A stretch of 64,000 nt of DNA. It comes from Atractiella rhizophila (Eukaryota). Both the position numbers and the translations under genes were made by a program. Location: the NCBI GenBank assembly GCA_021432655.1, contig MU271235.1, forward strand, positions 1 through 64,000. The letters are read 5' to 3'. The stretch's first letter is position 1. Each line of letters opens with the position of its first letter. Under the pieces are notes generated by a model, which did no database searches, had not been told where the DNA came from, and worked only from the letters and a program-made list of their open reading frames with translations. This document shows, one piece after another, positions 1 through 48,331 of this stretch.

Positions 1-602
1 TCCATGCTGCTTTAGCTGGATCCTTGATAGCGCTGTCCTGAGAGAATTTGGCATGTCTACGTTCAATAAGCTCCAAGGTCCAGCGACTCCTTTCAATTCA
101 AGTCGTGCTTCTGCTTTCTAAGTGGAACAGAGCCCACAAGTGAGTCTAAGCAAACTTCCGTTTGAATACTCCAAAACTGTCTGTCGTTAGGGAGGTACCT
201 TTACATCAATTGCTTCCTAAGTGGCGCCTCAAGCATCATTGTATAAATCGGGAATAGTTCAACAGAAGCATCCTTAGACCTCGATGACTACGTTAGGCGA
301 TGTAAGGAACCGACTTAATATCGACTATAGCCAAGGGTTCTAGTGATTTGATGAAACTTCCGTTTTCCCCAGAAAACTGGAAATCGGAACAAATGTTGAG
401 CACCACGGAAGAGAGACATTCAGCACGAATGCATGGAGCACAGATTATTAGAAAGCAGGATGGTGTCAATAGAAAAACGATTGCGAATACAATACAATGA
501 TACGCGTACTGTTTCCCGACACAGCTTACATTACCGAGACAACTTGAAACTCACAGAGTCTGCCATCGCAACACACAAGCACTAAAACGGAATGATTAAG
601 CA

Positions 603-3600
603 CTAACTCCAACTTGCAAACGTTCCACTCTCCATTTCTCCCGGTGTCCAAGCCCCCATGCCTCCTCCCCCGCTCATATTACCCACATCCCAAGGTGCAT
701 TCTCCATGGGCAAACCACCAAAGGCTGCACCACCTGCCGACAATTCGAACTGGGAACCAAAACCAGGGAAAAGGAAGTTGTTCCAAAGGCCTTGTTGGTC
801 CACTGTCGACCATTACACAATCAGCGTTGCGCATGAGAGAGTTAAGGAGTGGAAAACGTACGGAAGTTATCCATCTCGGCATCAGTCGCCAAGTTAAAGC
901 TTCCATTTGCGTTCCCGTTCACAAAAGTTCCTCCGTCTGCATTCATATCCATCCCCATCCCACCCTGAGGTTGTTGTTGAATCGCAAAGTTCTTCACCAC
1001 GCTCTCCAACCCCAATGCATTCCCTTCCTGCCCAACTACGTTGGTTTCCTGTCCAGCAACCAAACTTCCCTCCCTCGTACCTGCCGCACGGGTGCCGGTT
1101 CCCCTCCTCCCCTCCAACAGCATCTTGAGGAACTTGGCGTACAGTGCAGGAGTGTGCGTATCGTCCACGGCCACGGACTCAAAGAGGTCTATCACTTCTT
1201 GGACCAACAGGAGGAGCCTCGTCTCGGAACAAATAGATTCGAAGTCAGGTCGAATGCATTTGAGAAGGAAGACGGCGGCGTAAGAGAGGAAAACGAATTG
1301 AGCGTCAGTGGCGTAGCGCAGGTGGTTCTATTCCCTTTATGAAAACTATGAAAGGAACTCGGGAAAGCACTAACACGTGGACCGAGGATATCCTTTCCTA
1401 TGCGTATGATCCCGCTTGCATTCTCAAAGCACTGAAGAAATAAACCGTTGAGATCGATGGTCTCGTTTTCGTTGTCCCTCTTATCGAGAGCATTTTGGAA
1501 GCCAAAACTGAGGAGTAAAAGTTTGTAGTAGTGATCTGCTCACATGCTAAAGATCTGCTGGTTGGAAGGGGGACAAGACAAACAGTAAAACATCTTGATC
1601 GCCGCCCAATAATGAGGTGCGCGCAATTGAGCAAGTGCTTCGATTGGAACGCTCCACTCGTCCCTCCAAGAGTCGATCTGGGTAGAGAACGTTCTGAGCA
1701 GCATGGTATAGTCAAGATGAGGGTTTAGACCAGACGGTGTGGTTGTGTCCTTGTAGAGCGTCAATGAACNNNNNNNNNNNNNNNNNNNNNNNNNNNNNNN
1801 NNNNNNNNNNNNNNNNNNNNNNNNNNNNNNNNNNNNNNNNNNNNNNNNNNNNNNNNNNNNNNNNNNNNNNNNNNNNNNNNNNNNNNNNNNNNNNNNNNNN
1901 NNNNNNNNNNNNNNNNNNNNNNNNNNNNNNNNNNNNNNNNNNNNNNNNNNNNNNNNNNNNNNNNNNNNNNNNNNNNNNNNNNNNNNNNNNNNNNNNNNNN
2001 NNNNNNNNNNNNNNNNNNNNNNNNNNNNNNNNNNNNNNNNNNNNNNNNNNNNNNNNNNNNNNNNNNNNNNNNNNNNNNNNNNNNNNNNNNNNNNNNNNNN
2101 NNNNNNNNNNNNNNNNNNNNNNNNNNNNNNNNNNNNNNNNNNNNNNNNNNNNNNNNNNNNNNNNNNNNNNNNNNNNNNNNNNNNNNNNNNNNNNNNNNNN
2201 NNNNNNNNNNNNNNNNNNNNNNNNNNNNNNNNNNNNNNNNNNNNNNNNNNNNNNNNNNNNNNNNNNNNNNNNNNNNNNNNNNACACTGGCCTGTTGCGGG
2301 ACAACCGGAGCGAAGCTTTTCGAATAAAGGAGGGATGCCGGTACTTGTAAGATGGCGAGGCGGCACACCAGTAGCTTAGTTCTTACGGCGGACGATAAAA
2401 CTGTCTCTTCTATCACTGCTAGCTTCTTCGACACCGGAACAAGGCCTAAATAAAGCTCGTATAACCGTAGGTGTTGAGGAAAGATCTACGACTGAAGGTG
2501 TGAGGCTGTGAGCACCCGAGAGCTAGTGGGAAGGAAAAGTGTCAGTAAACGCGGCACCGGCGATCCAAAATATGGCTTGCTTTCCTGGAGATAGAGTGGA
2601 TCGTCGTCACGGCGCTCCCTCTCCACTTCCAACACGGCCGCTACTTCACCGTTCTGGCTGAGTAGCGGGGACTCGTTCTCTTTCCGCTGCTGCTTCCTGC
2701 TGTTCTGTAGCGACGCTCTATATCCACATTAAACAGGAGACTAGGCGCCAGGAAAAACCATTTACTCAGCTAACAAGCCTAAAGGATTCAGTGTGTTGTC
2801 CGGCAGACTATGTAAGCGGGGCGACGGTGGCTTTTCACGACTAGCATCCCGTACCGAAGGTTGAGTCGAACTGCGTCCTCGCCTTGAGTCATCATCAAGG
2901 CGTGGATCGATCGCAACAGGGAGCGGGCGAGTTGTGGGTGACAACGTTATTGGTGCTATGGGAGGCGTGCCCGTCAGCATGCCAGCGGAACTGGCCATAA
3001 CTCCAGGATGGGAGATGCTCTTGAGTACGACGTCTAGGGTTTGTTCCTTATATTCCGGTCATGAATAGCAGTTTGGTGGAGGAGAAAAGAAGAGCCACCA
3101 TTTTCTTGAGACTCGAAGCCATGGCATCGTGTTTCTTATTTGATCGTTTTCCACGCTGCGACTCCTCAAATATACATTCATGACCACCATTGGAGCTGAA
3201 CCCTCCGCCGATTAACTGTCTCATAACGGCAGAATAAAAGATTGACGCACCAACGCTTACAAGGCGGCCCGACATCGACCCCATCCTCCATCCTCGGCAC
3301 ACACCTCATCTTCAGTCTCCTGCATACCATACAAGCCCTCGCTCCCCTCGTTGTCTTTGGTTTCTTCGGTGGGGGTTCACCCTCCTCCTCTTTTTTCGCA
3401 ATCATACCATTCGATGGCCGATCCCTCTTCGTTCCCTTCCCATCACTCGACCCAGGAGTCAGTCCGTCGGCCTGGGGAGAAATGTCGCTCCCGCTCCCCC
3501 TGGTGGTGTGCTGGTGAGGGCTGCTGATGGTCCGACTTGCTGCGTTCCACATTCCTTCTCCACCTGGGACTGGAGGGATCCCATCGATAAAGTTCGAGGA

Positions 3601-3651
3601 AGAGGAGCTTTGGTTGTACATGTTAGGAGAGGAATCGAGTGGGTAATTCAT
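603..3651 (-). CDS. Zn(II)2Cys6 fungal transcription factor (priB-like), multi-exon; middle part lies in the N-gap and in a mirror-written block
   Basis: ATG at 3651 (MNYPLDSS). Zn cluster GARACMVCRRLKMRC...PPCKR followed by an intron. NTLNPLGLLAE|ASLQN. Middle homology region LFRIYFEHIGIHNSFLDADFHTPTLVGSRSPFLFTVICAVAARFY is recovered from the complement of 2283-2600. C-terminal exons (AVDDTHTPALYAKFL...; ...FASWS*) end at the stop at 603-605. Confidence 0.9.
2283..2600. other. Mirror-written (reversed, not complemented) block abutting an N-gap; holds a coding exon of the Zn2Cys6 gene
   Basis: The base-by-base complement read left to right continues the minus-strand frame from 2601: ...ERRDD-D-VTGQRPVGLASK(+1 a)AYFLPTAMNILPLRRVVIESRMPPAILTEKIVTIEEAVALFRIYF...KDLYLT. 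Confidence 0.93.
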
Positions 3652-5820
3652 CGGGGTTGTGCAGCCGGATCTCACAGAGAGATAGCAAAGATGAGAGAGC
3701 GTGTGAGAGTAATCTGTCAAACAAATTCCATTAGTATGAGCCATCTCAGACGTGACACCGTGCCACCGAACCATAAGCAGTGAAAGAGATAACTGGAGCT
3801 CAGTCTTATACGCGAGACAATGTCAGTTAATTCGGAATCTAAAACTTCCAGAACCCTGTGACTGCAAGCTGAAATGTTGGGTTCCGAACGCATTCCGTGT
3901 TTGAACAGGGTCAGAACGGAGTCAAGAGCATGTCATATTCGACCCTTGCACGACGAACATCCCGACCGCACCGTCGTACCTTTTTTCTTAGAAACAGACA
4001 AAGCTATGCTATTGTAGTGGTTGCCTTATAGACAAGTGTGCAGATCCAAATCCAGGAAACTCGCCCATCTTCGAACTTCCGAGGTACTTGAAGAACAAAA
4101 TCAATTCAACGAAGGGTTGGTAACGGACCCCTTAGAGCCCTGGTCCAGCCAAGAGATAGCAAGAAAAAGGTCATCATTATGAATGCCGCCTGTGGACGTG
4201 TTATGGTCAGCCCGACGGCAACGCCGAAGTGGAGCGACGCGCAATGAGGCTGTTTTCATTGGCTGCAAAGAGCTGGGGCAGCAGCAGCACAGATCTGGAG
4301 TACTTCAAAGAATGTGCGGGGCACAGAATCGTTTCATAGAATCCGAAACTGCCTTCAAGCACGGCACGCAAAGCACTGGCTAGAGTAAGTGGGAGAAAAA
4401 GATAGAGGTTCGGCTCCTCCCGCCTCTTATAATGTGAAGGAGAGTATATGGTTATCAAGACGGATTAAAAGACAACAGCATTTCGAATGACAGAACATGC
4501 AGAGCCCTTTGCGTTGTCAAGAGTTCACAATCTGGACTCACCCAAGCAAGTCTTTGCGCAACGATCTGCTCAACCTTGAGACCGGCAATCAACACAATTC
4601 CTGAGCGACAACAGTTCCCCTTGAGTCTTATGCCGTGTTGCTCTTCCTGTCCTTCCCCTCGATCCTCCTATCCACTCCGAATCCAATACAATTCCAATGC
4701 TCGAGTGTCAGCTCGGGTGGAACAAGTCTCCGTCCGGTGGTGCAGTTCCGGCGGCCGATATGGTGCGCGCGATAGGGTGCTGAGGGTCGCTGCTCGGATG
4801 GGGAAGCTGGGGAAGTCTGGGGAAATCGAAATCCAAAATTGTAGGCCAACTGCGGAGTTGGTCGGAGATCTTGATCCCTTGGGGGTTGGTTGATGTTACT
4901 CCTTACGATTTGGGACTTGCGACAGTAATATTTGTGGAGCAGGATGGAGCAGTATGGATGTTCAGAGGGACTAGAATACGTCAACGAAAAAACCCAAAGC
5001 AAGGTCCGTGTTTCAACCAAGCAAGCTTGGGACGATGCCCGAATCAATGAATAAAGAGCTCGCGCGCTCGTTGCTAATGCCACTGCAGCCCCATCGTTCT
5101 CCATCAATGATAGGCTGACGAAAAAACGAACCGAAATAACAAGCTTTCCTGCTTCAACTGCTTCTCCCCTCTCTTGCTGCAAATAACTCCTTCCTTGCAT
5201 TTGTGGTGGAGCATAACCGCATTTCAAACCGCTATCCTTTTCTACTTTTTATGTGTAGAATTGGTCGTTTTGCGCCAGTTCCCCATGACAGCCTGTGGAC
5301 TTCAGATGGCCTTTATGGTAAATCTTGTGGCGTACTATGCTTCGACATCAGCTCCATAAGAATTGAAATTGACTGTGGAATCTTCGTCTCTTCGCGAACT
5401 GCCTCGGGATGTAGAGTAACATAGAAGAGACAGCCAAATACTTTTGTGAGATCATGTTATCGTTAATTATTTGATCAAACAAATTTACTTGTGAAGTTCC
5501 TTGAAAGTTCCTCAGTCAGCCTAAATCCGCCAGTGTAGTGTAGGGAAGTGGAACATAGTGGGAAGCAAAGGGAGATACGCCAACTTGGTACCCGCTACTT
5601 CAAATTACTAGCAGAACGCTAGATATGCCTTTAGATCGAAGAAGGACACAATATTCTGACCCTACGTAACCTCGAACTGCTATTGCCACAATCAGAATGG
5701 ATGTGCCCTGTTCTAAGGAGAAAGGGTTAGAAGGTTCGAACATAGTAGTGTTGTCATGTCCAGAAGGTAATTGCTAGCACAGTTCCATTCTTACACTCCT
5801 TGTAAGTTCTTTCATTCAAT

Positions 5821-6699
5821 TTATCCCCAGCCGCTCTCTACGAGTTTTGCTTCTGCAGCATTGATGTGATACGTCATCCCGGAACCACCACAGATTCGCA
5901 CGAAACTATTGGAGACGACGTGCCCATCCTCGAATCCGAGACGAAAGCCCTACGCACAGACTCTGTTAATGTTGAAGGGGAACCCTGAAGAACCACTCAC
6001 TCCGTACATCCCAGGGATTGGCATCCAGATCTCCTCAAACTCCCGCAGCGCTCCAATAGGACACATCCTAAACCACTCCATATCCAGATCTCGTGGTCCC
6101 TCTTGTGGCACGAGCTTTCGCAGGTGCTCTTCAATTGCCGATATTTCACCTTCTGTCATTTCCTTCATGCGGCTCTTTCTATCGAGCGAGCCACTGAGTA
6201 GCTCGTAAAGGTGTTCGTGCCCCTTAGCTTTGGCGAGGTCCAGAGGGGTTTCTCCTGTTGTAGTTCTCGCGAAACCTAGCACAGTCCATTGTTAACTACG
6301 CAAGCACTGAAGGAGGCACGCACGAGTTCCACCAAGCGCAAGGATTCCCTCTACAAGTTCCCTCTGAACTCCTTGATCAGCAGCATGGTGTAAGATTGTC
6401 CAACCATCACCCTTCTTCGCGTTCAGCGCCTTCGAGTCGCTAAGTTTCACACAGTTGATGATATCATGAAAATTTGCTCCTTCCTTTTCCGCCCAAGAGA
6501 AAATCTTGCCCCATTGTCCCTTCTGCGCATAGGTGACCAGTCGGTTTTGCTCCTTCGCCCATTCCGATCTGTATGGTTGTGAATCGTACATGCAAACCCA
6601 ATGCAAGTCCTCAGGCGATTCTACAGATTTCAACTTCTCAAGTATGGGCAGGATATCTTCAAGTTCAGCCTGTGGCTGCTTCGATGGCGATGACCCCAT
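5821..6699 (-). CDS. Ankyrin-repeat protein with C-terminal W-x-P-x-PGMYGGF...R-x-x-GGSG domain; 3 exons
   Basis: Introns 6276-6323 and 5950-6000 (GT-AG) join GWTILHHAADQG...LGGTRFARTTTGETPLDLAKAKGHEHLYELL to WMPIPGMYG|GFRLGFEDGHVVSNSFVRICGGSGMTYHINAAEAKLVESGWG*. Confidence 0.85.
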
Positions 6700-8673
6700 A
6701 ATTCAACTGTTGACCCTGATTTCAAGTGATGGTGAGAGGGGCAGTCCCAGGCAGAGAAAGCCACGGTGGATTAAATGGTTCTTCGAACCAGCTGTTTCCT
6801 TTACCGCATGAGTCGCATGCGGAAGCAAATGCCAATGCCACTGTCAGTGGCAGTGCAATTGGAGTGTAACGAGTCTCCATGTATTAACAAAGCTTTCGTA
6901 ATACTGACCATCAAAAGCCATCATGAGCAAGAGTCTACACTAAACGTTCAGGGTGGGTTAAAACTCAGTCGGTAAGGACTGAAGCACCTCTGGTTTCGCC
7001 AGCCTGGAGCTCCTAAATTGCCCTGCTAGTAGCCTTGCAGATCGGAACTAGGGAACTTGAACGTCTCAAAGCGGTTACATGACTCAACGGAGCTTGAAGA
7101 CGTCGCCATTCATTTCATCATTTAGGAATTCTTGTCTGCTGTGTACAGAAGCGTTTACTCAACTATATTCACTGCCAGTCAATATTTCTTCCTTAAAGCT
7201 CAGCAGAACTCACCAAGCTCCAGAGTGGTTTCTCCTGACAGCGACGATTCCGGGATTTCTTCCCCTGCTCGTCGTATGGCAGTCGCCTATCGTCGAATTG
7301 TCTCAATCCCTCATTTGGAAGCAAGCCAAAAACTTACCCTTGTCATTAAACGTCGCGGTAGATCCCCCTAGCGGCGCAGAGCAATCAGTAGCGCTAGACT
7401 CAGTGATGCAGTTCAGTTCGCCGTCTTCAATTCATCGTCAGGGTTATCCTGTTTCATACGACACAACGACGTACTGAAGTAGGTGTGGTATGAAAACCAT
7501 CCGAAGCCATCGGGATTGGGAGGAAAGACCACACATTTTCCAATCACATTACATTACCTTAGCTCTCATCTGTTAGAGGCGACAAACCAGCCGTCAATCC
7601 GAAGACTTGCTACATATCACTTCAGAATTCCGCTTGGACCAGAAATCGACAAAAACGCTTACAGAAGGGGTGCCAGAGCAGTCCTCATTTGGGAAGAGCA
7701 ACATCTGGGCCTTGGCAGAAGCCAACGCGATATTGGAGGCTGCAATGAGAAAGAAACTGATCACCTTCATGTCGTCTTTGTTGCGTTGCTTTCAAGATAT
7801 CCCGCCTTTTTATCTCTTTCATTGTATCAGAGAGACAGTGACAGACGATTCTCCTCTTGTTCTCTCCAGGGTATAGCAGTCGGTGACTTTTAGTTTGCTC
7901 AGCATCGTTTGCTGATGATCTTTACCCCTACATTAGCCCAGACCCCACCATGACCGCATTACCGCTCTACCTCCCACGTCTCCTCACACTTTCGGTGGCT
8001 ACCTATTTCGTTGCCGTCATCAGTTATTCACTCGCATATTGTGATGGACGTATCTCCTTCCTTGAAACAGTCAGTTTTCCAGCACCGAAAATCAGTCGTC
8101 CGGCTTTGAGCGCTTGAATCCGCACTCCTCGTAGATTGCAATGGCAGGTCCACTGGAGATTGAATTGCCAACCAAGAAGTCATGTATAAAAATCAAGTAA
8201 CCAACCCCAACTACCCTTGTCCTTGTGCGCACGTTTCGACGATATTCGGTGTAGCGCCACTGTACTCGGTCTCATTCTGCTATGTGACGGTTAAACCTCA
8301 CGGTGAAGCAAAGACTCGTTCATGTGTTCAAAACACTGGTTGATCCGCGATTTCGGTAGAACTGCCTCCTCCTGGTCACATTTGTCAACATTGGTTGGCT
8401 TTCGTACCTATTGCCTTCGGTTATGGACTTTGGACTTTGAGAGAGTAGTCATCAGGCAATTTCGGCGAAGAGAATATTCATTGCACAAACCATCATACAT
8501 GTACTAGCATCATAAATTCCAAGTGAAATCATTTCAATCGTCATGTAGTTCAGAGAGACATTCTGAACATAAGGGTTCATGAACAGACCACGGCTGAATA
8601 TCAAAGTCATTAGGTGAATCTCACCGACATGGCGGGGTGAGTGCCTTGAGGAAAATTGAAAGTCGCAGTTGAA

Positions 8674-9637
8674 TCAGATCAGCACGAAATCGCCCCAATA
8701 TCCTCTTGCTAACGTCTGGCTAGATTGCACAAGCCTATACATACCCGTCTTGATGCTATCCAAGCAACGATTAACAATCAAACTGAACGGCAGAAAGGAA
8801 GCTCACGTTTGTCTGTCAGATCCCATGTACCCACTGGCGTTATATCGCATCAACACTTTTCCGCCTACCTTTTCCTTCGCTATGTATGAGAAGGAGCCAT
8901 TCGAACCGTAGGTGACGACGATTTGGTGTCGAATTGCTTTATTTGTAAATCTGAGATTCGCGTTGAACGGGTGAGAGGAAGAGGAAGAGGAACGGCAGAC
9001 GATGATGCAGGTATGCGAGTTGAACAGCCCCCTCCACAGCGAATATTATCAATGATTTGAATGTAACCGTTGATGAGATCGAGGGTGATGGTAGGTCCGT
9101 TGTCTCCATGTGAGAAGAGCTAGGAAGGAATGTCATTTGAAACGTTAGAGTGAAGGAGGAGACTTGCTTGGAAAAGGTGAAAAAAGTGCTGTGACCATCC
9201 CGTCTCGCTCGATATCCAATTGGTCCATTGGTACGTCCTCGTGTCTCCATCCGCCTGATCTGTTTCGATTGTCAAACTACACATTGGAGCGAGATTGATG
9301 GCTTACACGCATACAGAAACTCGTTTCGTTGCCGCGGGCTTCCTTCTTTACTCCCAGGATCCAACATGATGGTCGGATCCTGCGAAAGGTAGAGCCCATA
9401 GCAGTAGGTGATATGCGAAGTGGCATCGGCATTATCGCAGCCTTTGGTGAATATGCCGGTCATTTGGTAGCTCACAGTGGTGGTGGTAGAGGTGAAGAAG
9501 GTGATGTTGCCATACTGGATCGACGAACCGTCTGCTATGACCGTAACATCACGGGAGCGGAGGATGCCTTCGTCTTGAATAGGGAGGGAGGCAGCGAAGG
9601 CGAGGAAGAGTAGAAAGACTGAGGATATCAAGAGCAT
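8674..9637 (-). CDS. Secreted beta-jelly-roll / polysaccharide-lyase-like protein, 5 exons
   Basis: Signal peptide MLLISSVFLLFLAFAAS. The spliced product contains SPRQRNEFL, YQWTNWIS, HFFHLFQLFS, GPTITLD and IKTGMYR...YWGDFVLI*. The R-x-E, H-x-x-Q and K-x-G-x-YR motifs resemble PL7/PL20-type lyase folds (inference). Confidence 0.7.
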
Positions 9638-11327
9638 TTCCTCTTAAATTTGTCTGACTTCCGCTCTCTGTGTCCAGAACCCGAAGGCTCCAGCTCGTCT
9701 CGCATGAGCTTTTATATAACTCTCTACCCAGGTGCCCACGACAGTTTTGCTCGAGATACAGTAAGTAAGATTTCCGATGGCAGACCCTAGGTTATTGTGC
9801 CTTGGGGATATTCGAAATGTGCTATCCGTATTCGCAGCTGCCAGTTTTGGCCTTCATTAGGAAAACATCTTTGAAGGAAGTTGGGCATTGTGGCTTTCCG
9901 TTCTTGATGCGTTCTCAATACCGTGAAAGAACATTGAAAGCGTATGAGCGTGTGGCCGAGAGATAGATGACAGAGACGAAAGTTGACAAGATGGCTCATG
10001 GTACTACTAGGTTGCCAGATTAGCAGAGCAGAAAGCGAAAAGGCAAGCACGAAAGTCTCCCGTTCGGTGGCGACTAACGTTTGTCATCGTTCAATGTTTG
10101 CCTGTGAGCTTCTGTCGGAGTGGTAGCGACGGGAATCGGGAAGCGGGAAGCGGTAACGGTAACCAGTAACCAGAAAAGCACATTCTACCCATCGCCTGTG
10201 CTCCTTCACTCAATGTCAAAACCAACGGTGGCTGTGACAACTGAGAAAAACCACAGAAATTGACGATAGAAATAAAGGTCTTTGATGATTGCCAATTCTT
10301 GCAAACAGAAGGTGTCAGTTCCCGCTTTGGGCGAGATGTGCAACACGTTGGGCCGATGGCACCACTTGACATCAGTGGAGATATTGCTGGAGTTATGATG
10401 GTGAGCAGGCTGATCTTTAGGCCGACATCTTAACTCAAGAAGATGCAGCTCTCTGAGCGCGGACGTTCGTGTCCTGAATATTTCGACAGCGTGAGCCGCA
10501 GAAGGTACAAAGTTTCTGAGGGGAGTCTACACTAACCTCCTTCGCCACACGGTAAAGGTGACGTGATGGATTCCGTCGCACGCAATATTCCATGACACGC
10601 ATTGGAAATTTTGGGTCAAAAGTAACAGCCGTCAAGATTCAAGGTGCAGCCTTACTTGTATGGTTCCTTATGGCGCTTCATGCTTTTGGCAACGCAATGC
10701 CTTTCCACTGCCGCTCGATGAACCAGACAAGATGCAATCTGGGAGAGTCTGAGCAGCGTTCAAAGTATCCTGAGATAGACTATGCTTAGAGCGCGTACAC
10801 TGATGAGCGTGCTTTTTCAAGGCACCAACCGTGAGTGGATCTCGGTGATATGCGTCACTCTCATCGGTATTGTGAAAGAGAGATATGTCGCTCTAATTGG
10901 GGGATCTACGCGGTACTCGCTAATAATGGGAATGGGCGAGATCATCCCTCCAATTGATTGTCATTACTGTCGATGCATCAATGCATTTCAGCTCATATCT
11001 GCTGTGAAGCTGCTTCGGGTAGGATCACACACTCATCCTTCTTCCCAGTACCCAAACCAGGCCTAAATGGTGTCGTATTGGCGACTCAGACAGAAGAGAC
11101 GAACCCATAAACATTACAAATCAGTTCTGGGTTACATAGCTATTCCCTCACTCTTCCTTCCTTGCAATCACCTCCAAGTTGCAATCAGGCCCTTGCAGTA
11201 AACTCTACAGCTCCTCACTCTTAGGCTGAATTATGACAGCGGCCTGCGAAGAGATGCAGATGAGTCCCGCTTCTTTTACGCGTATCTCCTCCCGCGATCG
11301 AAAGGAATGAAAAAAGTACTTCACCAG

Positions 11328-13481
11328 ATGAGCGCCTCTCGCTTCGCTCCGCACGTCGAGAACTCCGCGACGCTCCTGCTGCCCGCCTCCAGCAGCGGCA
11401 AGCCACTCGTCTTCCTCAACCCCGTCCAAGAGTACAACCGGGACCTCTCCGTCGCCTGTCTCACCACATACCGTCACATAAGGCAGAGGGAGCTCCAAAA
11501 GTCTACCAAGAGAGACGACTTTTGTTGGAGGCCTTATGTCCTCGACGCACTGTCTGCTAGCGGGCTGAGGGCCATCAGGTATGCGAGGGAGATCAAGGAG
11601 TGTAGGTTGGTGGTCGCCAACGATCTGTCGAGGGAGGCAATGGAGGTCATCGAGCGAAATATCTCGCACAATCGCGTCGCTAATCCAAATAGCAATACCA
11701 ATGGAGACACAAACGCAGAAGGGGCGGAGGGAGAAGAAAAGAAGAAGGCGTTTTATACGCCTCAAGAGCGCCCAGCCTACGTCGTGCCCTCGCTCTCCGA
11801 CGCCCTCGTCCTCCTCTCCCTGTCCAGAATCAAACCCAGTCCCTCCTCCTCATTCCCTTACACCGGTCCTACATCTGGAAAAGCCTTCGATGTCATCGAC
11901 CTCGATCCTTACGGCACCTGCGCACCTTTCGTCGACGCAGCAGTGCAGAATGTCGCTGATGAAGGGCTCCTGATGGTCACCGCAACCGATATGGCTGTTG
12001 CAGCGAGCACAAATCATCACGAGAAATGCTATGGGAACTACGGGGGTTTGCCAACGAGGAAGGAGTGGTGTCACGAAGCCGTATATATCCCCTTTCTCCA
12101 CTGTGACTGCTCTTGGAGGGCAGAAACTAATAGGAAACCAATGAGCAGGCAATCCGCATGATTTTAAACACCCTCGCCACCTCCGCCGCTCGATACGGAA
12201 AGACCATCCGCCCTTTGCTCTCCCTCAGCATCGACTTCTACGTCCGAGTTTTCATTCGCGTCTCCCCCTCACGACAAGAAACGAAGGAGCTGGCATCTCT
12301 CACCTCTCTGGTGTACACGTGCGACCATTGCCATGCCCATTGGCTGCAGCCGTTCGGGAGAACGAGTTTGCCTCCCTCGGAAGAACAGGGTGGAGAGGCG
12401 GATGGGGAGGGCGAGGGAAAGAAGGGAAAGAAGGTCGCGAAGGGGAAGGGGAAGGGCGGTATCAAGTTTCACATACCTGCTGGACCCCCGGTCGAGACGA
12501 CGAGAGGAGGTGGGAAATGCGAGGAGTGTGGAGCTGGCTTTCACGTTCGTCTCTCTCTTCTCTTCTGTTGGCTGCATGAGGACAGAAAATGCTCATAGCT
12601 CATAACTGATTCCCGTAATAGGTTGCAGGCCCCATGTGGACGGGAAGACTACACGATCCGGACTTCGTCCAAGAAGTTTTAGAGACAGTAAAGGCGAGGG
12701 AGTCGCGTTCGTCCACGCCCGCAACCTCAACTGCAACAGGAGCAGAAACGTCAGCGACGGCGGAGGAGAATAATGGAAACGCGAATGGAGAGAAGGAGGA
12801 GGAACCGCTGAAACCCTTTGGGACGACGGAAAGACTAAAAGGGATGCTGCAGATCGCTGCTTCCGTACGTCTCTCCCCCACTATGAAGGGATGGACTAAA
12901 CCAATACTCCATGGTTGGTGGACATATGTAGGAGATTCAGACGCCTTTTTATTTCAGTCCATCGAGGATTTCAGGGATGTTCCACTCTCGCACTCCGCCG
13001 CTGGAGACGGTAACGTTAGTCTTCCACCCCTGTCCTCTTCAAGTGTGCCAATATTTACGTGACGGGTATATGCAACAGATCCGCCCTCCTGCATGCGGGC
13101 TACGCCGTCTCACGCTCACACGCCCTCCCCGGTTCTCTCAAGACTAATGCGCCAGTCTCCTTCATAAACGACGTCTGGCGTTTCTGGATAAAAGACTCCG
13201 AACCAGTCAACATGTCCAACATCAAGGAGACTTCTCCCGCACGGCAGTTGCTCCTGAAACCGATAACTCACGAAGTGAATACGAAGCGGCACGAGAAGGT
13301 CGAAGAGGTGCTTATGAGCAGAGTAAAGATCACTAAGTATCCAGCTAATCCGGAGCCTGGATGGGGACCGGGGAAAAAGGCGGTGGAGGGGAAAGGGAGG
13401 AAGAGGAGGAATGAAGAGGGGGAGGGGGATGGAGAATCTAAAAAACCGAGATTGGGGGAAGAGGTTGTAGCACCTTCATGA
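11328..13481 (+). CDS. TRM1: tRNA (guanine26-N2,N2)-dimethyltransferase, multi-exon
   Basis: Motifs VFLNPVQEYNRDLSV, VLDALSASGLRAIRYARE, FDVIDLDPYG, LLSLSIDFYVRVF, CxxC pairs, GPMWTG, SALLHAGY...SHA...SLKTNAP and YPANPEPGWGP. An alternative in-frame ATG lies at 11307. Confidence 0.96.
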
Positions 13482-13610
13482 CGGACGGCTGTAAATGGAG
13501 TTTCTACGTTGCATCTTGAGAAACGGAGTATCTGTGCGATGATATACATTCCAATTATAACATCCAGTGTCGTACATCCTGTGTAAGGGATATAAGTACA
13601 TTACTTGCAC

Positions 13611-16600
13611 AGCGGGGACTAGAGGTTAAGGTTGAAGCAAGGGTTGAAGAGAGAGACGCTAAGGAAGGGAAGGTGCAAAGGGCTGCTCGGAACAGCAGGA
13701 CTTTTAAGACGAGGAAACCGGCTCCTACAACGAGGGAAGGGATAGCAACACGGAGGAAGCCCCGCCAAACCTTGGCCACCCTCACCTACTACTAGGGAAC
13801 CCTAACGGGAGAAGAGGGTCCCACTGATCAACACGCCCACTACCCACGCTCCTTCCCCCGAAAGTCGCGCATCACCGCCTACATTCTGGGTGGGTCTACT
13901 ACTCAGGGTTGAGAAGTGGAGCACACGTCCAATGACTAGTCCAGGGAGGACAAGGTAGACCTGGTCACCAACGGAGAGCAGCACCGTTCTGTGTGTCCTC
14001 GGTTTTGGCGCGCTGCTGTTCTTTCTAAAGTATCAGCTAGCTGCTGAGAGACTCCTTTACGTTGTTTTCCCGTTTTGTGGCTCTTTACCATGCTCTTTGA
14101 GAGTTTTGGCTACTTAGAGGAACCCGGAGTCAAGAGTGTCGGTATTATGGAGGTCGACAATATGTCAGCTTACAATGTCGTAGTGGCACTAGGTCCTACT
14201 AGGCTGTAGGAGAGTAGTGGCTTATCACGCGCCAATTCCAAGGCACGTTGTAGTTTTCTAATGAGAGGTGTTTGGGAGGGGACGTTGTCCTTCTCTGCGC
14301 CTGATACCGGGGAAGTCTCTCGTCAGCGACACTTGTCTACGCTAGACTCAATTCGTCTACGTGCTGGTACTACCTTGTCGCGTCGATGAACCACTGGCTG
14401 TTGGCTTCGGACTACCCCATTTTCCGGTAACACACCGTCACCCAAAAATGATAGTTTCTCGTGAATGCGCCATGACCCTTCCTCAAGTTCCGTGCAGAAA
14501 CGCAGGCACCGCTAGTCGTTGGAGACAGAGGGAGGGTACGGAGGTTGATAAGAGGACAATGCTTGACCTTGTGTTGAGCGTCGCAGGAATCGATACGTCG
14601 GGCGCTTGCGGAAGTACAGGTAGTTCGGCTAATAAGGGTTCGAAAATGAGTTGAGAGGGTACCTACTAGAGTGCTAAATGCAGTTCGTTGGAGGACCGAA
14701 GCATCACCTCCCCTTTCTCCTAACCCAAATAGGCGACTTCTTCCCACACATACCAAACCACAATCCCGACTGTGATACACGCCAGCGGCTATCCGCTACG
14801 CAGACATCACCTCTATTTGGATTCACGTACTATACTGTACTTCTGATTGGACATCACCTCTATTTGGATTCTCTTATGAGACTCCAGTGGAGGTGATGAG
14901 AGACTAGATATATATGTTCGCCTTATTGTGACGGTGTCTCGCATCTCCTCTCGTCTACTTTGTACATTCTCTTGATCTTCCCCTTCACTGTCACCCTAAT
15001 GCGCCTCAATTATTCTCCTCCTATCCGTGTTAACCCGATTCACCCTACATCCGCGTTTACCCGCTGCCCGCGGCTAAACGTGACGACGCACTCGTCACCG
15101 CTGCCCTCTGCGTCACCGCTGCCTCTCTGCGTCACCGCTGCCCTCTGCGTCACCGCTGCCCTGCGTGCTGCGTCGCGCTGCCCTCTGCTCCTGCCCTCTG
15201 CGTCACCGCTGCCCTCTGCGTCACCGGTGCTGCCCTCTGCGTCATCCGCTGCCTTCTTAGTCACCGCTGCCCTCTGCGTCTCCGCTGCCCTCTGCGTCTG
15301 CCCTCTGCGTCAGCGCTGCCCTCTGCGTCACCGCTGCCCTCTGCGTCACCGCTTGCCCGCGGTTCAAGCGTCCCTTGCGTTTACCCGCTATCCTCTGCGT
15401 TAGGCCGCTTGTCCGTGGCTAAACGCCTTCTACGTTTGGACTGTAAACCAAGTCCGATGCTTCGATCTCCATGTTATGCAACTTCTTCCTGGACGACAGC
15501 TTTCCCACCTTGCTCAACACCGAGTCTGAGCACACAGAAGTGCTTCATGCACCTACCCCTTGAAATGCACGACCAGCACATACAACTGCTGTGCGAATGA
15601 CAACCCCGATAGCTCAGAGTCCAATAGCGTGAAGTTGCACTCAACCGGAGGTGGAAGGCCTACGCTAATAATCCTGGCCAAGCTTTGAAAGACCCATGAA
15701 ATCACCTCGCACTAACCCTGTTTCCGTGAGAGAGGCAGAGAGTCCGCCTGAAACGCCAGCTCTACCAAGCGTTCAAACCTATGCTACAAGAAGGGAGACG
15801 AGCGTGAGGGCAGCTACAATTACTTGCTGAAGTTGGAAAACTCCCACTAACCAGACTCCTTCTAGAGGCAAGCTTCGGTAGTACCAGGAAGTTGAGACAA
15901 TAACCAACAGAACCAACCGAGCGCTTACGGTGGGCAGGGCTGTAACGGAAGCGAGAGAGGTTGCAGAGAGCTAAAGTCCGGTTAGGACCTGGGCGGGTGA
16001 AAGCACGTCACCTAGCGTAGAATGCGATGGAATTTCCGTGAGGCTGAGTGCCATAACAGATGAGTCGGCTGTTAGCAGTAGGGGAACGAAAAATGAGGCT
16101 ACGAAGGAAACGCTGAGAGGAAGGTTTAGACGCGAGAGTTTGACCTCACCACCGGTACGAGCGTCCACCTGGATAGAGTACCTAAAGGGTCCGAGTCTTT
16201 GAGCAACGCTCGAGAAGACCCCTCCGCCTCATGTCACGTCGAGTGCAGCGTCAGTTCGTCCGTTAAACCTGAGCCCCAAAGAAGGTCCTTAATCCGCATG
16301 AGTTAGCTCAAGTGTTACAGCTGCTGCGGCGGGGACGAGGAGGCTGGTGATAGAAGCTCCTGTTGGTCCGATGGTAGCGGTAAAGAGTCTTGCCAAGAGT
16401 AGTCCGAGTCAGTTTTGTGAAGAATAATGCCATGATACAGCACGCGCTATCCCAGTTAGCGTTGCTCCAACAGAATGCCATGTAAGCGTGGCGCACAGTC
16501 CAGCGTCTGACAGAGTGCTTCCGAGAGGGTATGCAAAGGAACTTCTTCCGTGACCTGTACAATCCGCATGCCCCGTTAACCTAGCTTCTAAGAAACCGCA

Positions 16601-16872
16601 AGAACTAAACAAATCAAAAGAACCACAAAGTAAAGAACCTAAATAATAGGGAAGACTCGATATGCACGACTAAGCGAGACCTCTGCAACCCCACGCTTAC
16701 AATCTACGGGTCGACCAGCTCGTCACCTGAGGAAAGACAATCACAGGGTGAGTGAAACATAAGGGCAAAGGGTTGCAGAGGGCGAGTGGGTGCATATATT
16801 TCGACCAGATGGAGAAGACCTAAAGGGCTAGCACAAGACAGAAGGAAGTGCAACCCCCTTAGGTCAGGTTGT
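13611..16872. mobile_element. Ty1/copia LTR retrotransposon 3' half (IN-RT linker, RT, RNase H, probable 3' LTR); legible only in the complement
   Basis: The complement reads QWVFTIK..FKARLCVRGDQQ..YSPV..VHQADYSQAF..IYVKQPPGF..LKKGVYGL|VQA, YVDD (15580-15591), TRPDIAF (15931-15951), RILRYLKGT, YSDASFA, GGPISW, SSGEAEY, IFEDNQATI and QVADCLTK, with a stop at 16669-16671. Candidate LTR TGTTAGA...TCCAACA at ~16699-16872 with a TATA box (low confidence). Confidence 0.92.
14760..15444. mobile_element. Solo LTR (same family as 45940 and 48332) inserted into the copia RT; mirror-written
   Basis: The complement starts TGTTAGGG and ends CCTGACA. Flanked by a 5-bp TSD (aaacc as written, TTTGG in the complement). 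Contains a noisy 18-bp minisatellite at ~15090-15350. Confidence 0.92.
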
Positions 16873-17309
16873 CTTGTCTAGAGAAGATGCTCGTGAAACT
16901 TGACGACTCTGAAAGCAATGGAACATACGGGTCGGTTTTGCGTGTGTAGACGAACTCGAGTCGTTCAAGTTACAACTGTCTGTCTGTATAAACCGCAGTT
17001 AGCAGGTTGCGGTGAGTATTAGCGGAGATAACCACAAGTTCCCGGAACAGCCAACACCACTTCACCCCTGAGCTCCCTAACGGGATTATTTTACTTACTA
17101 CGTGACAACTACACACATTATGACCGGGTTCTTTACGTTGCGGCACGTATCGAGTAGCAACTTTTCCCTAATAATTTATAGCGGATAATGTTTCAGGTAG
17201 AGTGAAATAGATTTTACAATACCAAATATCCACCTAACCATTGATGATAATGATGTTTCGTCAGTTAGCATGGGCGAGGAACTTNNNNNNNNNNNNNNNN
17301 NNNNNNNNN

Positions 17310-20300
17310 TGACCGAATCAACTGCAGTCCCGATCGCGACAGTCGCTCCTATTGGTGATCCAAGTGGTCCAGGGCGTGGTCTGCCTCCGAGGGGACAACA
17401 GTATCGTCTGAACTCTTCGTTCGAGATTACTGATACTCCCGTACGTCAAAGCCGCTCCCTCTGCCTCACAATGCGAGAGGTCGCTTACTTCGACATTCCA
17501 GGCTACAAGGAGTTATGATTGGTTGATAGCGTCCGTCATCTCTATCTTCCTTTCCATCGCCATTGACGCAGACATTATCAATAGAGCAAAAACGGCCGCT
17601 CCTGATGGCTATTCCAGAAATCTAATCACAATCAATGGTCTTACTCCGGGACCCCTGATTGAAGGTGAGCATGCAATGTGTTGTTCTAGGAATTTTTAAT
17701 AACAGATGTTCTTCAGCCAACGTGGGAGACACTGTCATCGGTGAGAAAAGAGAATTGAAGCAGGTTGTGGCTGACTTGTTTTCCACAGTTAACATCACCA
17801 ACACATTGGCCTCTAGCACAAGCATTCATTGGTGATTCTTCTGATTCTCATTTGTTCCACATCTAAAGGTTGGCTAGGCACGGGATGTATCAGAATTCGA
17901 CTCCTTGGATGGATGGAGTACCTGGAATGACCCAAGTAATCCTCTCCTTACTGTAAGCTATACAGTGTTGACAACCTTTTCACATAGTGCCCTATCCCAG
18001 CGGCTGATGCCACCTCGAACGGAACTTTCGTCTACGAATGGGTTGCTCAGGATTATGGAACGTATTGGTTAGCTTTTTGCTACGTTCTTCAGCATGATAT
18101 TCAATATCCCGGTTAGGTATCACTCCCATTCTGCGGTTCAATACACCGATGGCCTGCAAGGCCCTCTCATCATCCATTCTCCGGATGATCCGCTGAAACG
18201 CGGCGTCGACTTCGATATCGAAGAAGTGCGTTCCTTCTCCCGAATTTAGGTCAAGCGTTAATACCCTACATTAGGTCATAATGATGGCGGATTGGTACCA
18301 CGACGAAGCATCCAATATTATCAACGAGGTGCGTTTGTATTTCCATACCCTTGATGCGTCACTAATCCCTACGCTACTAGCTCCTCGATTCTGGCTATCA
18401 AGGCTCCATCGCATCACCGTCACCTCAGTCAGCCCTCTTGAACGGCCAAGGTGAGATCTCTACACACCATCCTGATTAGGGGTTGATGTTAAATATTGCA
18501 GGAATTTACAACTGCTCCCTCATCGATGACAGCTTATCCGATGACACCAGCGGCAACTGTACAACGCCTGATGATTACCCTGTCTTTGCAGTCGACCCAG
18601 CCACTAAATATCGTATCCGTCTTATCAACTCAGGAAGCCACGCTCAATTTTACTTCTCTGTGGACGGACACACACTCAACGTCACAGAAGCAGATTCTAC
18701 TCCTGTCTCTGGAGCAGACGCTGTCCACCGTGTACCCATCCATAATGGCCAGCGGTATTCTGTGTCGGTTTCCCTTGCTTTATTCTCGTCCCTTTCTTCA
18801 CTGACGATAATTCATAGCATNNNNNNNNNNNNNNNNNNNNNNNNNNNNNNNNNNNNNNNNNNNNNNNNNNNNNNNNNNNNNNNNNNNNNNNNNNNNNNNN
18901 NNNNNNNNNNNNNNNNNNNNNNNNNNNNNNNNNNNNNNNNNNNNNNNNNNNNNNNNNNNNNNNNNNNNNNNNNNNNNNNNNNNNNNNNNNNNNNNNNNNN
19001 NNNNNNNNNNNNNNNNNNNNNNNNNNNNNNNNNNNNNNNNNNNNNNNNNNNNNNNNNNNNNNNNNNNNNNNNNNNNNNNNNNNNNNNNNNNNNNNNNNNN
19101 NNNNNNNNNNNNNNNNNNNNNNNNNNNNNNNNNNNNNNNNNNNNNNNNNNNNNNNNNNNNNNNNNNNNNNNNNNNNNNNNNNNNNNNNNNNNNNNNNNNN
19201 NNNNNNNNNNNNNNNNNNNNNNNNNNNNNNNNNNNNNNNNNNNNNNNNNNNNNNNNNNNNNNNNNNNNNNNNNNNNNNNNNNNNNNNNNNNNNNNNNNNN
19301 NNNNNNNNNNNNNNNNNNNNNNNNNNNNNNNNNNNNNNNNNNNNNNNNNNNNNNNNNNNNNNNNNNNNNNNNNNNNNNNNNNNNNNNNNNNNNNNNNNNN
19401 NNNNNNNNNNNNNNNNNNNNNNNNNNNNNNNNNNNNNNNNTCGTAGACACCAGCTCAGACACCAATGGAACTGCTTTCTACATGCGCGCGGAAATGGTAT
19501 GTTTCAGAGTATTCCTTCCTCTTCACTTGTGCTTACCGGTGGAAAAGAACACCGATTGCTTCGCTTACGTCGATCCCACTCTCAACACGACCGCCGTCGG
19601 TATCCTCTCCATTCAAGACGGAGGCAACAAGATTAAACACACATTCCCTCGTAAAGTTTCGGTAGCGAATGTCACATCGTCAGACTGGTCAGATGCTCTC
19701 TCCGACTGAATGCATCGATATGGACGGTGATGAATTGGTCCCAATTGTGGCCAAGGGACGCGCCGACAGAGGTTGGGAAGAGGATCGCCTTTGACTCCGC
19801 CTTCGGTCTGATTTCCCGTGGCTGGAGAGACTGAATTCAGGTTTATGGTTAACAGACAGTACGTCTTTATTATCTTAACCAACTCGCTCTGATGTCTCCC
19901 CTATTTGCAGCTCCCTACAGTATGCTTCCTCTAGCCGTCGCAGCTTGCAACTAATGAAGTTCCTAGCAAATTATGTCAACCAGCCCCTTCTCGCCACTAT
20001 CATTGCTGGTGGAAAAGCCAATGCAAGTGCGGTCACCACAGCAACGTTTGAAGATGAATTCTGGGTTGGTGACATCTTGGTACGTTCCCTTACCACTATT
20101 AAAAGGAAAATTTTGATTGATGATGCTTTGTGTAGATCAATAACCTCGTTCGTCCTGATTGTTTTAAGTTCTACTTAAGCTCATCGCGGCGCTGAAGGAC
20201 CAAAGGATTGACCATCGTATGCTCTTTAGTTTCTTGTTCAGTGACTTGCCTCATTATTGATCGCAGCGTATCATTTGCACGGTTTCACCTTCTACGTTGT

Positions 20301-31570: not shown

Positions 31571-37765
<6,195 letters not shown>

Positions 37766-38924: not shown

Positions 38925-45094
<6,170 letters not shown>

Positions 45095-45939
45095 TTACCT
45101 CTCTCCCCGTTCACATTTAACGTTGCTGGATCATTGGATAAAGTACTATGATTGATTGTTTCAAGGAATTCAATAATAAACTGTGCCCACCTTACCGGTA
45201 TTTTTACTGACATTGTATACCATTACCATTTAAAGTAGTCTAGCCGTGGGCCTGTGCTGCCCTCTTTTAAATCAAACCGCCAACTTTCTGTCCTCACCAA
45301 TATCTGCTAGAGAAGACATTAAATAACTCTAGTTGATTCACGCAAAGATTATTACTATATTCACTCTCGGACTGAGCACATTTCACATCTGGATTACAGG
45401 CGCTTCGATCACAGAAGGGGTGTCAAAGTTGTGGCAGAAAAGACTGAAGTTAGTCATGAGCGCAAGATCTTTTCCGCCCTTCCAACAAATCGTAGAATGC
45501 GAAGTGACGTCATCGCTTGTTTTTACAACGCCATTCCCGCTCAGCAGATCAGCTGACTCAAGTGAGTTTTCACGCGTCCTAAAAGCGCAAAAACTTCACC
45601 CGCCCTCCCTCCGCATTTTTGCACTATCTCTTTATGCCTTAGCCTGTAGGGGTATGCCTGCTTTCCTTGCATCTCCCTGTAGCTTGGCATTCGGAGCTCG
45701 TTTTTGTGCAGGTTTCGTGCTTGCTTTGCAGTGCTTAGCTTGCATTCCACACGCCTCTTCACGTTGTACGAGGCACATGCTACCGATCTCTGACCGCTCC
45801 ACCCAACCTGGCTGAAGAGTAATGTGTGTTTCAGTAGTTAGAGTGAGCTGAAGAACAGATTTGTTGGATGAATCAATAAAATTAACTTTCCGGCTTGCAT
45901 GTCTGTGTGCCATGATGAATTAAAAAAATATGCAGCTTG

Positions 45940-46356
45940 TGTTAGGGCTGACACTATATGCGGTCACCGATGGGCAATGCGTCTGTAGTGGAGATATACC
46001 TAAGTGCATGATATGACATGAAGACTAACCTGTAGTGGAGATAAACCTAAGAGAATACTCTAAGGTCACCTCCACTACCCTCCGATCTATATATACAAGC
46101 GGAATAACACTGCCACAAAGTGCAGAGCAGAGCAGATGAAACACGTAAGAGAACTAAAAGGGGAAAGTAACAGTGGGATTACGCGGAGTTAATAAGAGGA
46201 GAATAGACACAAATGGGCTAAGAGGTGATGCAGGTGCAAAAAGGCGACAGGAGATGCAGAGTGGCAATGGGCACCAATTCGCAGGGAACGCAAACAGGCG
46301 ATAGGTGACCCAATCTGGCGAACAGGTGCCGATTTGCGTAAGATGCAAACCTGACA
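45940..46356. mobile_element. Solo LTR, short variant (417 bp)
   Basis: TGTTAGGG...CCTGACA termini and 5-bp TSD GCTTG. Reverse complement of 48332-49068 but with only about one minisatellite unit. Confidence 0.92.
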
Positions 46357-46527
46357 GCTTGCTGGGGTTTGAGACCCCCACCAAAAACTGCTTTTCAGGC
46401 TGCATCATTGCCACTTGCAGCTCGCAAGTCAGCCATCACCAAAGCAAAGCGGTCAAACTATGTTCCTGCCCTTGGTGTGCCATGTCCGCTGTCTACCTTA
46501 AGCTAACTGTCCCTTTCCTGATTTGCC

Positions 46528-48095: not shown

Positions 48096-48099
48096 TGAG

Positions 48100-48230
48100 T
48101 GTTAGGTTTACATTTTATGCAAATCAGGGCCTGTTCGCCGGATTGCATCTCCTATTGCCGGATTGTGTTCTCCGCGAATCAGTGCCCCTTCACCTGTTTG
48201 CATTCTACGCACATCGGCGCGGTGCTAACA
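48100..48230. mobile_element. Short diverged LTR-related piece (TG...CA, 131 bp)
   Basis: tgttaggtttacattttatgcaaatcagggcctgttcgccggattgca aligns to the start of the 48332 LTR (tgtcaggtttgcatcttacgcaaatcggcgcccgttcgccggattgcg) and ends gctaaca. No TSD. Confidence 0.65.
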
Positions 48231-48331
48231 CAAGACAGTCATGGGTAGAGGTTAACCTGTCACAAAGAGATGTGGGCTCTATTGCGCTCAGAATGATGTC
48301 GGCAAATCACCCCTGCACATTGCTTGCATCT

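Follow-up and report, generated by a model that had tools for sequence, protein, structure and literature searches.

Among the closest described counterparts of the structure reported here is the gap-filling program PBJelly (English et al. 2012, PMC3504050), which, according to published descriptions (PMC3504050, PMC6733440, and PMC6240028), counts a run of at least 25 N as a gap, extends the flanks of gaps that it is unable to close, and brings short gaps up to a length of exactly 25 N. The present locus resembles the description in the one-sided extension of contig ends, in one remaining gap of exactly 25 N, and in another gap reduced to 513 N. However, the program as described there (PMC3504050) orients its extensions correctly, whereas here they are reversed and uncomplemented. 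A second counterpart is inversion misassembly, in which a block written in the wrong direction likewise adjoins a scaffold join. An inversion is a reverse complement, so its genes stay readable on the other strand, while the larger block described below is reversed only, and its information is therefore carried by no real strand.

The sequence analysed (the window) comprises positions 1 to 64,000 of the forward strand of contig MU271235.1 from Atractiella rhizophila (GCA_021432655.1). Positions 13611 to 17284 of the window, referred to here as block 1, are real DNA written 3' to 5' without complementing, which is an artefact of the assembly and not a biological feature. The block lies between a normal gene and a gap whose length of exactly 25 N had been noted in the original prediction:

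11202 to 13481, plus strand: gene for a TRM1-type tRNA (guanine-N2)-dimethyltransferase with short introns, supported by Pfam PF02005 and spliced contigs; the normal left flank
13611 to 17284, no strand assigned: mirror block 1, reversed and uncomplemented real DNA, recognized from loose contig ends, the k-mer score, and tblastx
17285 to 17309, no strand assigned: gap of exactly 25 N, directly right of block 1

Four exon frames of the TRM1 gene match PF02005 (E 7e-51, 8.7e-18, 5.8e-4, and 5.4e-5), spliced contigs of one public run (X3) place its GT..AG introns at 12080 to 12149, 12544 to 12622, 12864 to 12932, and 13014 to 13079, and normal sequence extends past the gene as far as 13610. Block 1 had been said to give nothing meaningful in six frames, and this holds: its longest ORF as written has 188 codons, an ordinary length that 109 of 2000 shuffles also reach. 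Reversed, the same block contains an ORF of 395 codons, a length reached by none of 2000 shuffles, the longest of which gave 305.

The direction of writing was also scored with a k-mer model trained on the window outside block 1, in which the sequence as written was compared with its reverse in 400-nt windows (k=4). Scores were 10.83 ± 5.25 outside block 1, where the windows themselves belonged to the training set, and -6.14 ± 4.31 inside it. The 11 windows with a score under -5 all have their first position within 13601 to 16801, and the change points of the score fall near 13581 and 17183. A low-parameter model (k=2) shows the same sign flip (9.16 outside versus -3.39 inside block 1). The flip is confined to block 1 and to a second, shorter mirror block described below.

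Public data for the same organism consist of Logan contigs of three runs (X1, X2, and X3), not raw reads. X1 and X2 are two DNA runs from one sample and are not demonstrably the source data of the assembly; the contigs differ from the window flanks by ~0.7% (10 other letters in 1364). Contig depth is 0 in four bins between 14008 and 16675 in all three runs, beside flanks of ~300 (X1) and ~200 (X2), and such an uncovered contig stretch proves nothing. The share of sampled words of 7300 to 17284 that is present in the runs (0.46, 0.44, and 0.26) carries no weight as evidence either.

The loose ends of these contigs are decisive. Contigs of X1 and X2 follow the window to 13610 and then continue with 172 extra letters, of which the 30 displayed are the plain reverse of 17255 to 17284 (30/30). 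The point where they part from the window, 13610|13611, is the exact left edge of block 1. Since the loose end at 13610 is the reverse of the far end of the block, block 1 must be reversed in place to give the true DNA, as the original prediction had proposed. With the block reversed in place, pol comes to lie on the minus strand. Correction by complementing the block in place was rejected because the loose end joins its far end to 13610. At the other edge, X1 and X3 have a 40-letter loose end left of 17310 that is unlike anything displayed within block 1.

The same loose ends bear on the notion that the sequenced isolate truly has mirror-written DNA at this position, which we regard as extremely improbable. 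It would have in its favor only the record itself, together with the prospect that the runs come from another isolate, as their ~0.7% differences allow, but at the identical junction the forward version is present in the same organism or a relative, and the same fault recurs beside another gap, in the second block. Selection, moreover, could not maintain a 395-codon frame in mirrored form. Polymerases make antiparallel complements, so that no known replication or repair route leads to a reversed, uncomplemented copy, and no enzyme is known that would produce one by parallel, uncomplemented copying.

When decoded, block 1 contains Ty1/copia retrotransposon sequence:

13611 to 14758, no strand assigned: decoded upstream pol, comprising a linker and the N-terminal half of RT, with homology at 14389 to 14646; adjoins the 25-N gap once corrected
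15484 to 16668, plain complement only: 395-codon frame for the C-terminal part of the copia RT (with YVDD) and RNase H, to the end of pol
16669 to 17284, no strand assigned: decoded 616 nt 3' of the pol stop, joining the TRM1 3' flank at 13610 in the real DNA

The plain complement of block 1 contains the copia RT/RNase H frame that had been predicted for it, with YVDD at 15580, TRPDI at 15931, RYLKGT at 16024, SSGEAEY at 16213, EDNQ at 16357, and ADCLTK at 16504. YVDD and the motifs of the RNase H region are typical of copia elements. After correction, the frame runs on the minus strand from 15411 down to 14227. Of 121 natural copia-type loci searched with it by tblastn, 116 give a match, the best at E 8e-40. 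Decoded block 1 as a whole yields 263 tblastx HSPs to 113 of the 121 loci, versus 0 for the block as written, which gave no hits in any of three controls. The 121-locus database retains one chance match (L001), the sole locus of a degenerate-motif scan of viral contigs, which was dropped as a comparator, its long frame being on the opposite strand.

Residues 865 to 1188 of the polyprotein of locus L002 align to the 395-codon frame (E 1.7e-51), and this alignment ends at most 35 residues before the end of the polyprotein (residue 1188 of 1223). With natural copia polyproteins as tblastn queries, positions 14389 to 14646 match residues 742 to 816 of L073 (E 5.4e-13) and residues 735 to 804 of L002 (E 2.5e-8), and both ranges fall within the RVT_2 domains of those proteins. 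The stretch from 13611 to 14758, earlier taken for intergenic DNA, is instead upstream pol with homology to the N-terminal part of RVT_2. L002 and L073 were checked in full; both encode copia polyproteins in which rve precedes RVT_2 (RVT_2 E 1e-61 and 2e-69), and the decoded sequence aligns with both halves of the RVT_2 domain of L002. All five natural segments that align to the 395-codon frame match RVT_2, three of them above the curated cut-off, suggesting indirectly, through natural homologues only, that the decoded frame belongs to RVT_2 (PF07727). The 616 nt past the pol stop have no homology to the natural copia comparators and no match elsewhere in the window.

These matches refute the reading that meaningless DNA was over-interpreted by chance, the most improbable of the alternatives considered and one with nothing in its favor. 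Such a reading would have to accommodate a frame length that the shuffles never attain, E values as low as those given above for natural copia proteins against nothing at all in the as-written controls, and the match of a mirrored repeat at E 0.0. That repeat, which had been described as the mirror image of an LTR found twice elsewhere in the window, has the following copies:

14759 to 15444, no strand assigned: mirror image of the LTR-like repeat, 686 nt, in opposite orientation to pol, with a degraded 18-nt tandem array at 15093 to 15358
45938 to 46356, minus strand: natural copy B, lacking most of the array but sharing the TGT...ACA ends of copy A
48332 to 49070, plus strand: natural copy A, bounded by TGT...ACA ends; its 18-nt tandem array occupies 48417 to 48731

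The description is upheld by blastn of the reversed window against the window, in which the reverse of 14759 to 15444 is 89.5% identical to copy A (48332 to 49069) over 742 columns and, in blastn as well, the reverse of 14759 to 15069 is 91.7% identical to copy B (46251 to 45939) over 313 columns. The mirror repeat is rich in indels relative to copy A, with 16 gap openings and 18 mismatches, and in this respect the original prediction of homopolymer-type indels stands, but only some of the indels lie in single-letter runs. The 18-nt array has 14.8 copies with 80% matches and 14% indels in the mirror repeat versus 17.5 copies with 98% and 1% in the natural array. Between natural copies A and B, substitutions predominate, with 26 mismatches but a single gap opening over 310 columns. 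The excess of indels in the mirror repeat would fit a long-read consensus and may in part reflect real divergence between the copies.

A natural copia polyprotein aligns on either side of the mirror repeat, which sets the two halves of RT ~690 nt too far apart. The repeat had been placed between TRM1 and pol as an LTR; it is actually within RT. Its candidacy as the terminal LTR of the decoded copia was rejected for this position, and because it is inside RT it is not that element's own LTR. By these alignments, the repeat is an insertion that splits the copia RT domain. It resembles a solo LTR in its length (~420 to 740 nt), its TGT...ACA ends, its three copies in the window (the mirror one included), and its lack of adjacent internal coding sequence. 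It differs from one in that a target-site duplication is not cleanly shown: no clean duplication is present at copy A or B, and the decoded copy has one of 5 nt only if two terminal letters are assumed to be lost.

The decoded element resembles Ty1/copia elements (Pseudoviridae) in that its alignment with natural polyproteins, YVDD included, extends from inside RVT_2 as far as the C terminus of pol. It differs from them in being a broken fragment, with its RT split by the repeat and its upstream end cut off by the 25-N gap. No flanking LTRs of its own were found in block 1, where the only repeat sits inside RT.

The second mirror block, absent from the original prediction, lies beside another gap:

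1770 to 2282, no strand assigned: gap of 513 N, adjoining mirror block 2
2283 to 2594, no strand assigned: mirror block 2, 312 nt on the right side of the 513-N gap, likewise reversed and uncomplemented, recognized from loose ends and the k-mer score

Public contigs part from the window exactly at 2595. Those of X1 and X2 cover 2595 to 3200 and have loose ends of 243 and 57 letters before 2595, which finish with the plain reverse of 2283 to 2312 (30/30 of the 30 letters displayed). The direction score of block 2 is -3.40, a value as low as which occurs in 0 of 1109 equal-length windows elsewhere. The cumulative k-mer score near 2283 to 2900 goes on dropping past 2594, where the contigs agree with the written sequence, so the curve alone cannot set the edge of this block. 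Block 2 lies within a gene spanned by spliced public contigs; the exon frame across 2594|2595 is open for 110 codons if the block is reversed versus 76 as written, which agrees with reversal, though weakly.

Both mirror blocks adjoin runs of N and join their flank seamlessly, consistent with gap extension in which the product was not properly reverse-complemented. Block 1 is very probably an artefact of gap extension written reversed without complementing, with block 2 arising from the same fault. A gap-extending program would have lengthened the contig left of the scaffold gap and output the extension 3' to 5' and uncomplemented, either by complementing but not reversing a minus-strand consensus, or by reversing a plus-strand consensus. 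The 25 N would then mark a gap that remained open, and block 2 would stem from the same fault, as an extension of the contig to the right of the 513-N gap. Reversed in place, each block gives the real DNA. The order for block 1 is then the TRM1 3' flank, 616 nt, RNase H and the C-terminal half of RT on the minus strand, the ~690-nt repeat on the plus strand, and finally the N-terminal half of RT with upstream pol, followed by the gap. Of the layout originally proposed, reversal in place and a minus-strand pol are retained, but the order is not, since the 3' end of pol lies toward TRM1, 616 nt from the junction at 13610.

We infer that long-read gap extension was the responsible step. Block 1 is better than raw-read quality, with the 395-codon frame intact and 30/30 identity at its end, and the case for a long-read origin therefore comes from the indel-rich repeat alone. 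PBJelly is a plausible candidate for the program, as judged from the 25-N spacer. It is possible, if somewhat doubtful, that the artefact had a different source, such as a different gap closer, patching by hand, or a script that handled sequence as if it were a quality string when flipping contigs. Quality strings get reversed, never complemented. A different source would agree with our having found no published report of such a fault in PBJelly, nor of reversal without complementing in other gap fillers or assemblies, and with a 395-codon frame kept open at an accuracy that does not require long reads. However, both blocks are seamless one-sided extensions into gaps, one of exactly 25 N, which is the behavior that the published descriptions attribute to PBJelly, and the differences in the mirror repeat are dominated by indels.

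Block 1 is a software error without biological meaning, and its value is that of a data-quality warning. No annotation or search tool can read ~4 kb of the 64-kb window, and such mirror blocks could pass for orphan or exotic DNA. Both of the extension blocks in the window are affected (2/2), and we consider the chances about even that the fault is systematic, such that all one-sided extensions into gaps of this assembly were written backwards and uncomplemented, as may also hold for other public assemblies finished with the same tool version. If so, the record would need correction, and genes and transposons next to gaps would be stored in databases in a form unreadable to searches. Other assemblies can be screened for such blocks cheaply, and without any reads, by means of the k-mer direction score.

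Block 1 (13611-17284) is a genuine mirror image along its entire length, with its letters reversed and not complemented. As written, its longest open frame is 188 codons, a length reached by 109 of 2000 shuffles; reversed, it contains a frame of 395 codons that none of 2000 shuffles reached (maximum 305). The motifs YVDD, TRPDI, RYLKGT, SSGEAEY, EDNQ, and ADCLTK follow one another in that order along this frame. Direction was also scored with a strand-symmetric k-mer model from the rest of the window, which compares a stretch as written with its own reverse and needs no second copy of the sequence. At k=4, 400-nt windows scored 10.83 +/- 5.25 outside block 1, values flattered by the presence of these windows in the training data, versus -6.14 +/- 4.31 inside. 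Scores below -5 (k=4) occur in 11 windows, which all start within 13601-16801, and the change points are near 13581 and 17183. The sign flips under a two-letter model too (9.16 outside versus -3.39 inside).

Features of the window around the mirror-written DNA
1770-2282, N run, 513 N
2283-2594, mirror block 2, 312 nt, beside the 513-N gap
11202-13481, intron-bearing TRM1-type tRNA methyltransferase gene left of block 1 (Pfam PF02005 on four exon frames)
15484-16668, plain complement read left to right, 395-codon frame
17285-17309, N run, 25 N
18821-19440, N run, 620 N (the last of three in the window)

Parts of 7300-17284 are present in three public sequencing runs of the organism, whose Logan contigs, and not raw reads, were compared with window positions 1-20000. 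X1 and X2, both from a single sample, look like DNA; X3 resembles RNA in that its contigs leave out introns, and the TRM1 introns were verified with such spliced contigs. X1 and X2 contigs match the window up to 13610 and continue with 172 letters unlike what comes next; the 30 of these that are displayed agree letter for letter with 17255-17284 read in plain reverse. The far end of block 1 therefore joins the TRM1 3' flank in the real DNA, and the block should be corrected by reversing it in place, as the original prediction had proposed in calling it an artefact. In the flanks of the block, contigs and window disagree at about 0.7% of letters, so the contigs may derive from another isolate or haplotype. 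Within the TRM1 intron 12544-12622, X1 and X2 contigs have 34 additional letters at 12565, an indel relative to the record. Before 17310, X1 and X3 contigs carry 40 letters unlike the 30 that adjoin the gap after correction, and real sequence is thus still absent at the 25-N gap. Around the 620-N gap, just 36 letters span the interval 18783-19441 in X1 and X2 contigs, which makes the gap far smaller than written; the two variant bridging forms (depths 223 and 107 in X1) indicate two haplotypes in the sample there.

The identification of the hidden sequence as copia reverse transcriptase (RT) and RNase H holds up through natural homologues. Comparators were 121 loci, namely 120 metagenome loci retrieved by searching for a nine-residue copia motif in degenerate form and one locus in a phage contig that matched by chance. 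The decoded 395-residue frame matches 116 of these at E <= 1e-3 (best E 8e-40); the loci were picked by a motif nearly shared with the frame, but the alignments nonetheless cover all of it. Its ten best matches show 31-35% identity over 300-374 residues. None of the 53 frames of at least 40 residues in block 1 as written matches any of the 121 loci, and tblastx gave 263 HSPs in 113 loci for the decoded block and none for the block as written. RVT_2 was found on all five natural segments scanned (three above the Pfam cut-off). In two of the loci, L002 and L073, the long frame encodes an entire copia polyprotein with Pol_BBD, gag_pre-integrs, rve, SH3_retrovirus, and RVT_2 (E 9.6e-62 and 2.2e-69, respectively), to which L073 adds a copia-type gag. 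As-written 15523-16530 aligns to L002 residues 865-1188 (E 1.7e-51) and 14437-14646 to residues 735-804, inside RVT_2 (E 2.5e-8); L073 gives the same pattern.

Between the two L002 alignments lie 60 residues of L002 versus 876 nt of block 1, an excess of about 690 nt that equals the length of a mirrored repeat (14759-15444), which is thus an insertion splitting the RT. As originally noted, this is the mirror image of a repeat found twice elsewhere: reversed, it aligns to 48332-49069 with 89.5% identity over 742 columns (E 0.0, blastn of the reversed window against the window), and its outer part to 46251-45939 with 91.7% identity over 313 columns. Its place inside the RT rules it out as a terminal LTR of the decoded copia. 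The natural copies start with TGT and finish with ACA, and none of the three copies in the window adjoins Pfam-recognised coding sequence; the repeat reads best as a solo LTR. At the decoded copy, a 5-nt target duplication can be seen only on the assumption that two terminal letters have been lost. The natural copies (45938-49070) are inverted and 1975 nt apart, frames between them have no Pfam match, and 48100-48194 (95 nt) partially duplicates the start of the repeat. Elsewhere in the window, two adjacent plus-strand sets of ABC-transporter exon frames (ABC_membrane and ABC_tran; 32845-37590 and 41203-44924) are probably tandem paralogues.

Order after correction (a corrected coordinate is 30895 less the as-written one)
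1. TRM1 flank
2. 616 nt between the TRM1 flank and the RNase H end of pol, without homology to the comparator loci or to the rest of the window
3. 15411 down to 14227, minus strand, RNase H and C-terminal half of RT
4. 15451-16136, plus strand, repeat
5. N-terminal half of RT and upstream pol
6. 25-N gap

The predicted arrangement survives in its outline, with the TRM1 flank first, pol on the minus strand, and the gap last; its inner order of intergenic DNA, LTR, and pol does not, as the repeat lies inside RT and upstream pol lies at the gap.

Mirror block 2 repeats the pattern. X1 and X2 contigs cover 2595-3200 and have no cover on 2283-2594, and the unmatched tails that they carry before 2595 (243 and 57 letters) finish with the plain reverse of 2283-2312 (30/30 letters). 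The k-mer score of the block is -3.40, as low as in none of 1109 equal-length windows elsewhere. Reversal lengthens the open stretch of an exon frame that enters from 2716 to 110 codons, from 76 as written, which weakly favours the reversal. The gap and block lengths sum to 825 (513 + 312), which may equal the original gap size. A minus-strand gene at 694-3713, set by spliced X3 contigs, crosses both; its introns are 47-59 nt (CT..AC), and its exon frames have no Pfam match.

Block 2 extends the contig right of the 513-N gap and block 1 the contig left of the 25-N gap. Both prolong a contig end seamlessly, and from one side, into a scaffold gap, and both of the two such extensions in the window are mirror-written. 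A program thus knew the sequence past the contig end and wrote its letters in the wrong order. Either a minus-strand consensus would have been complemented without reversal or a plus-strand consensus reversed; both routes would give the same outcome. Compared with the natural copy at 48332-49070, the mirror repeat has 18 mismatches and 16 gap openings, and indels in the 18-nt array amount to 14% versus 1% in the natural copy; between the two natural copies there are 26 mismatches and 1 gap opening over 310 columns. Such indel-dominated error fits a long-read consensus, a fairly good one given the intact 395-codon frame. PBJelly treats 25 or more N as a gap, extends the flanks of gaps that it cannot close, marks gaps as "overfilled", and brings short ones up to exactly 25 N (PMC3504050, PMC6733440, PMC6240028). 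The 25-N run fits this padding. Our literature search for a reverse-without-complement fault in gap fillers or assemblies found no paper describing one. Block 1 is almost certainly an assembly artefact; that PBJelly produced it is slightly better than an even bet. The block is no biological feature, and its value is as a warning on the quality of the record and as a recipe for detecting the same error elsewhere.
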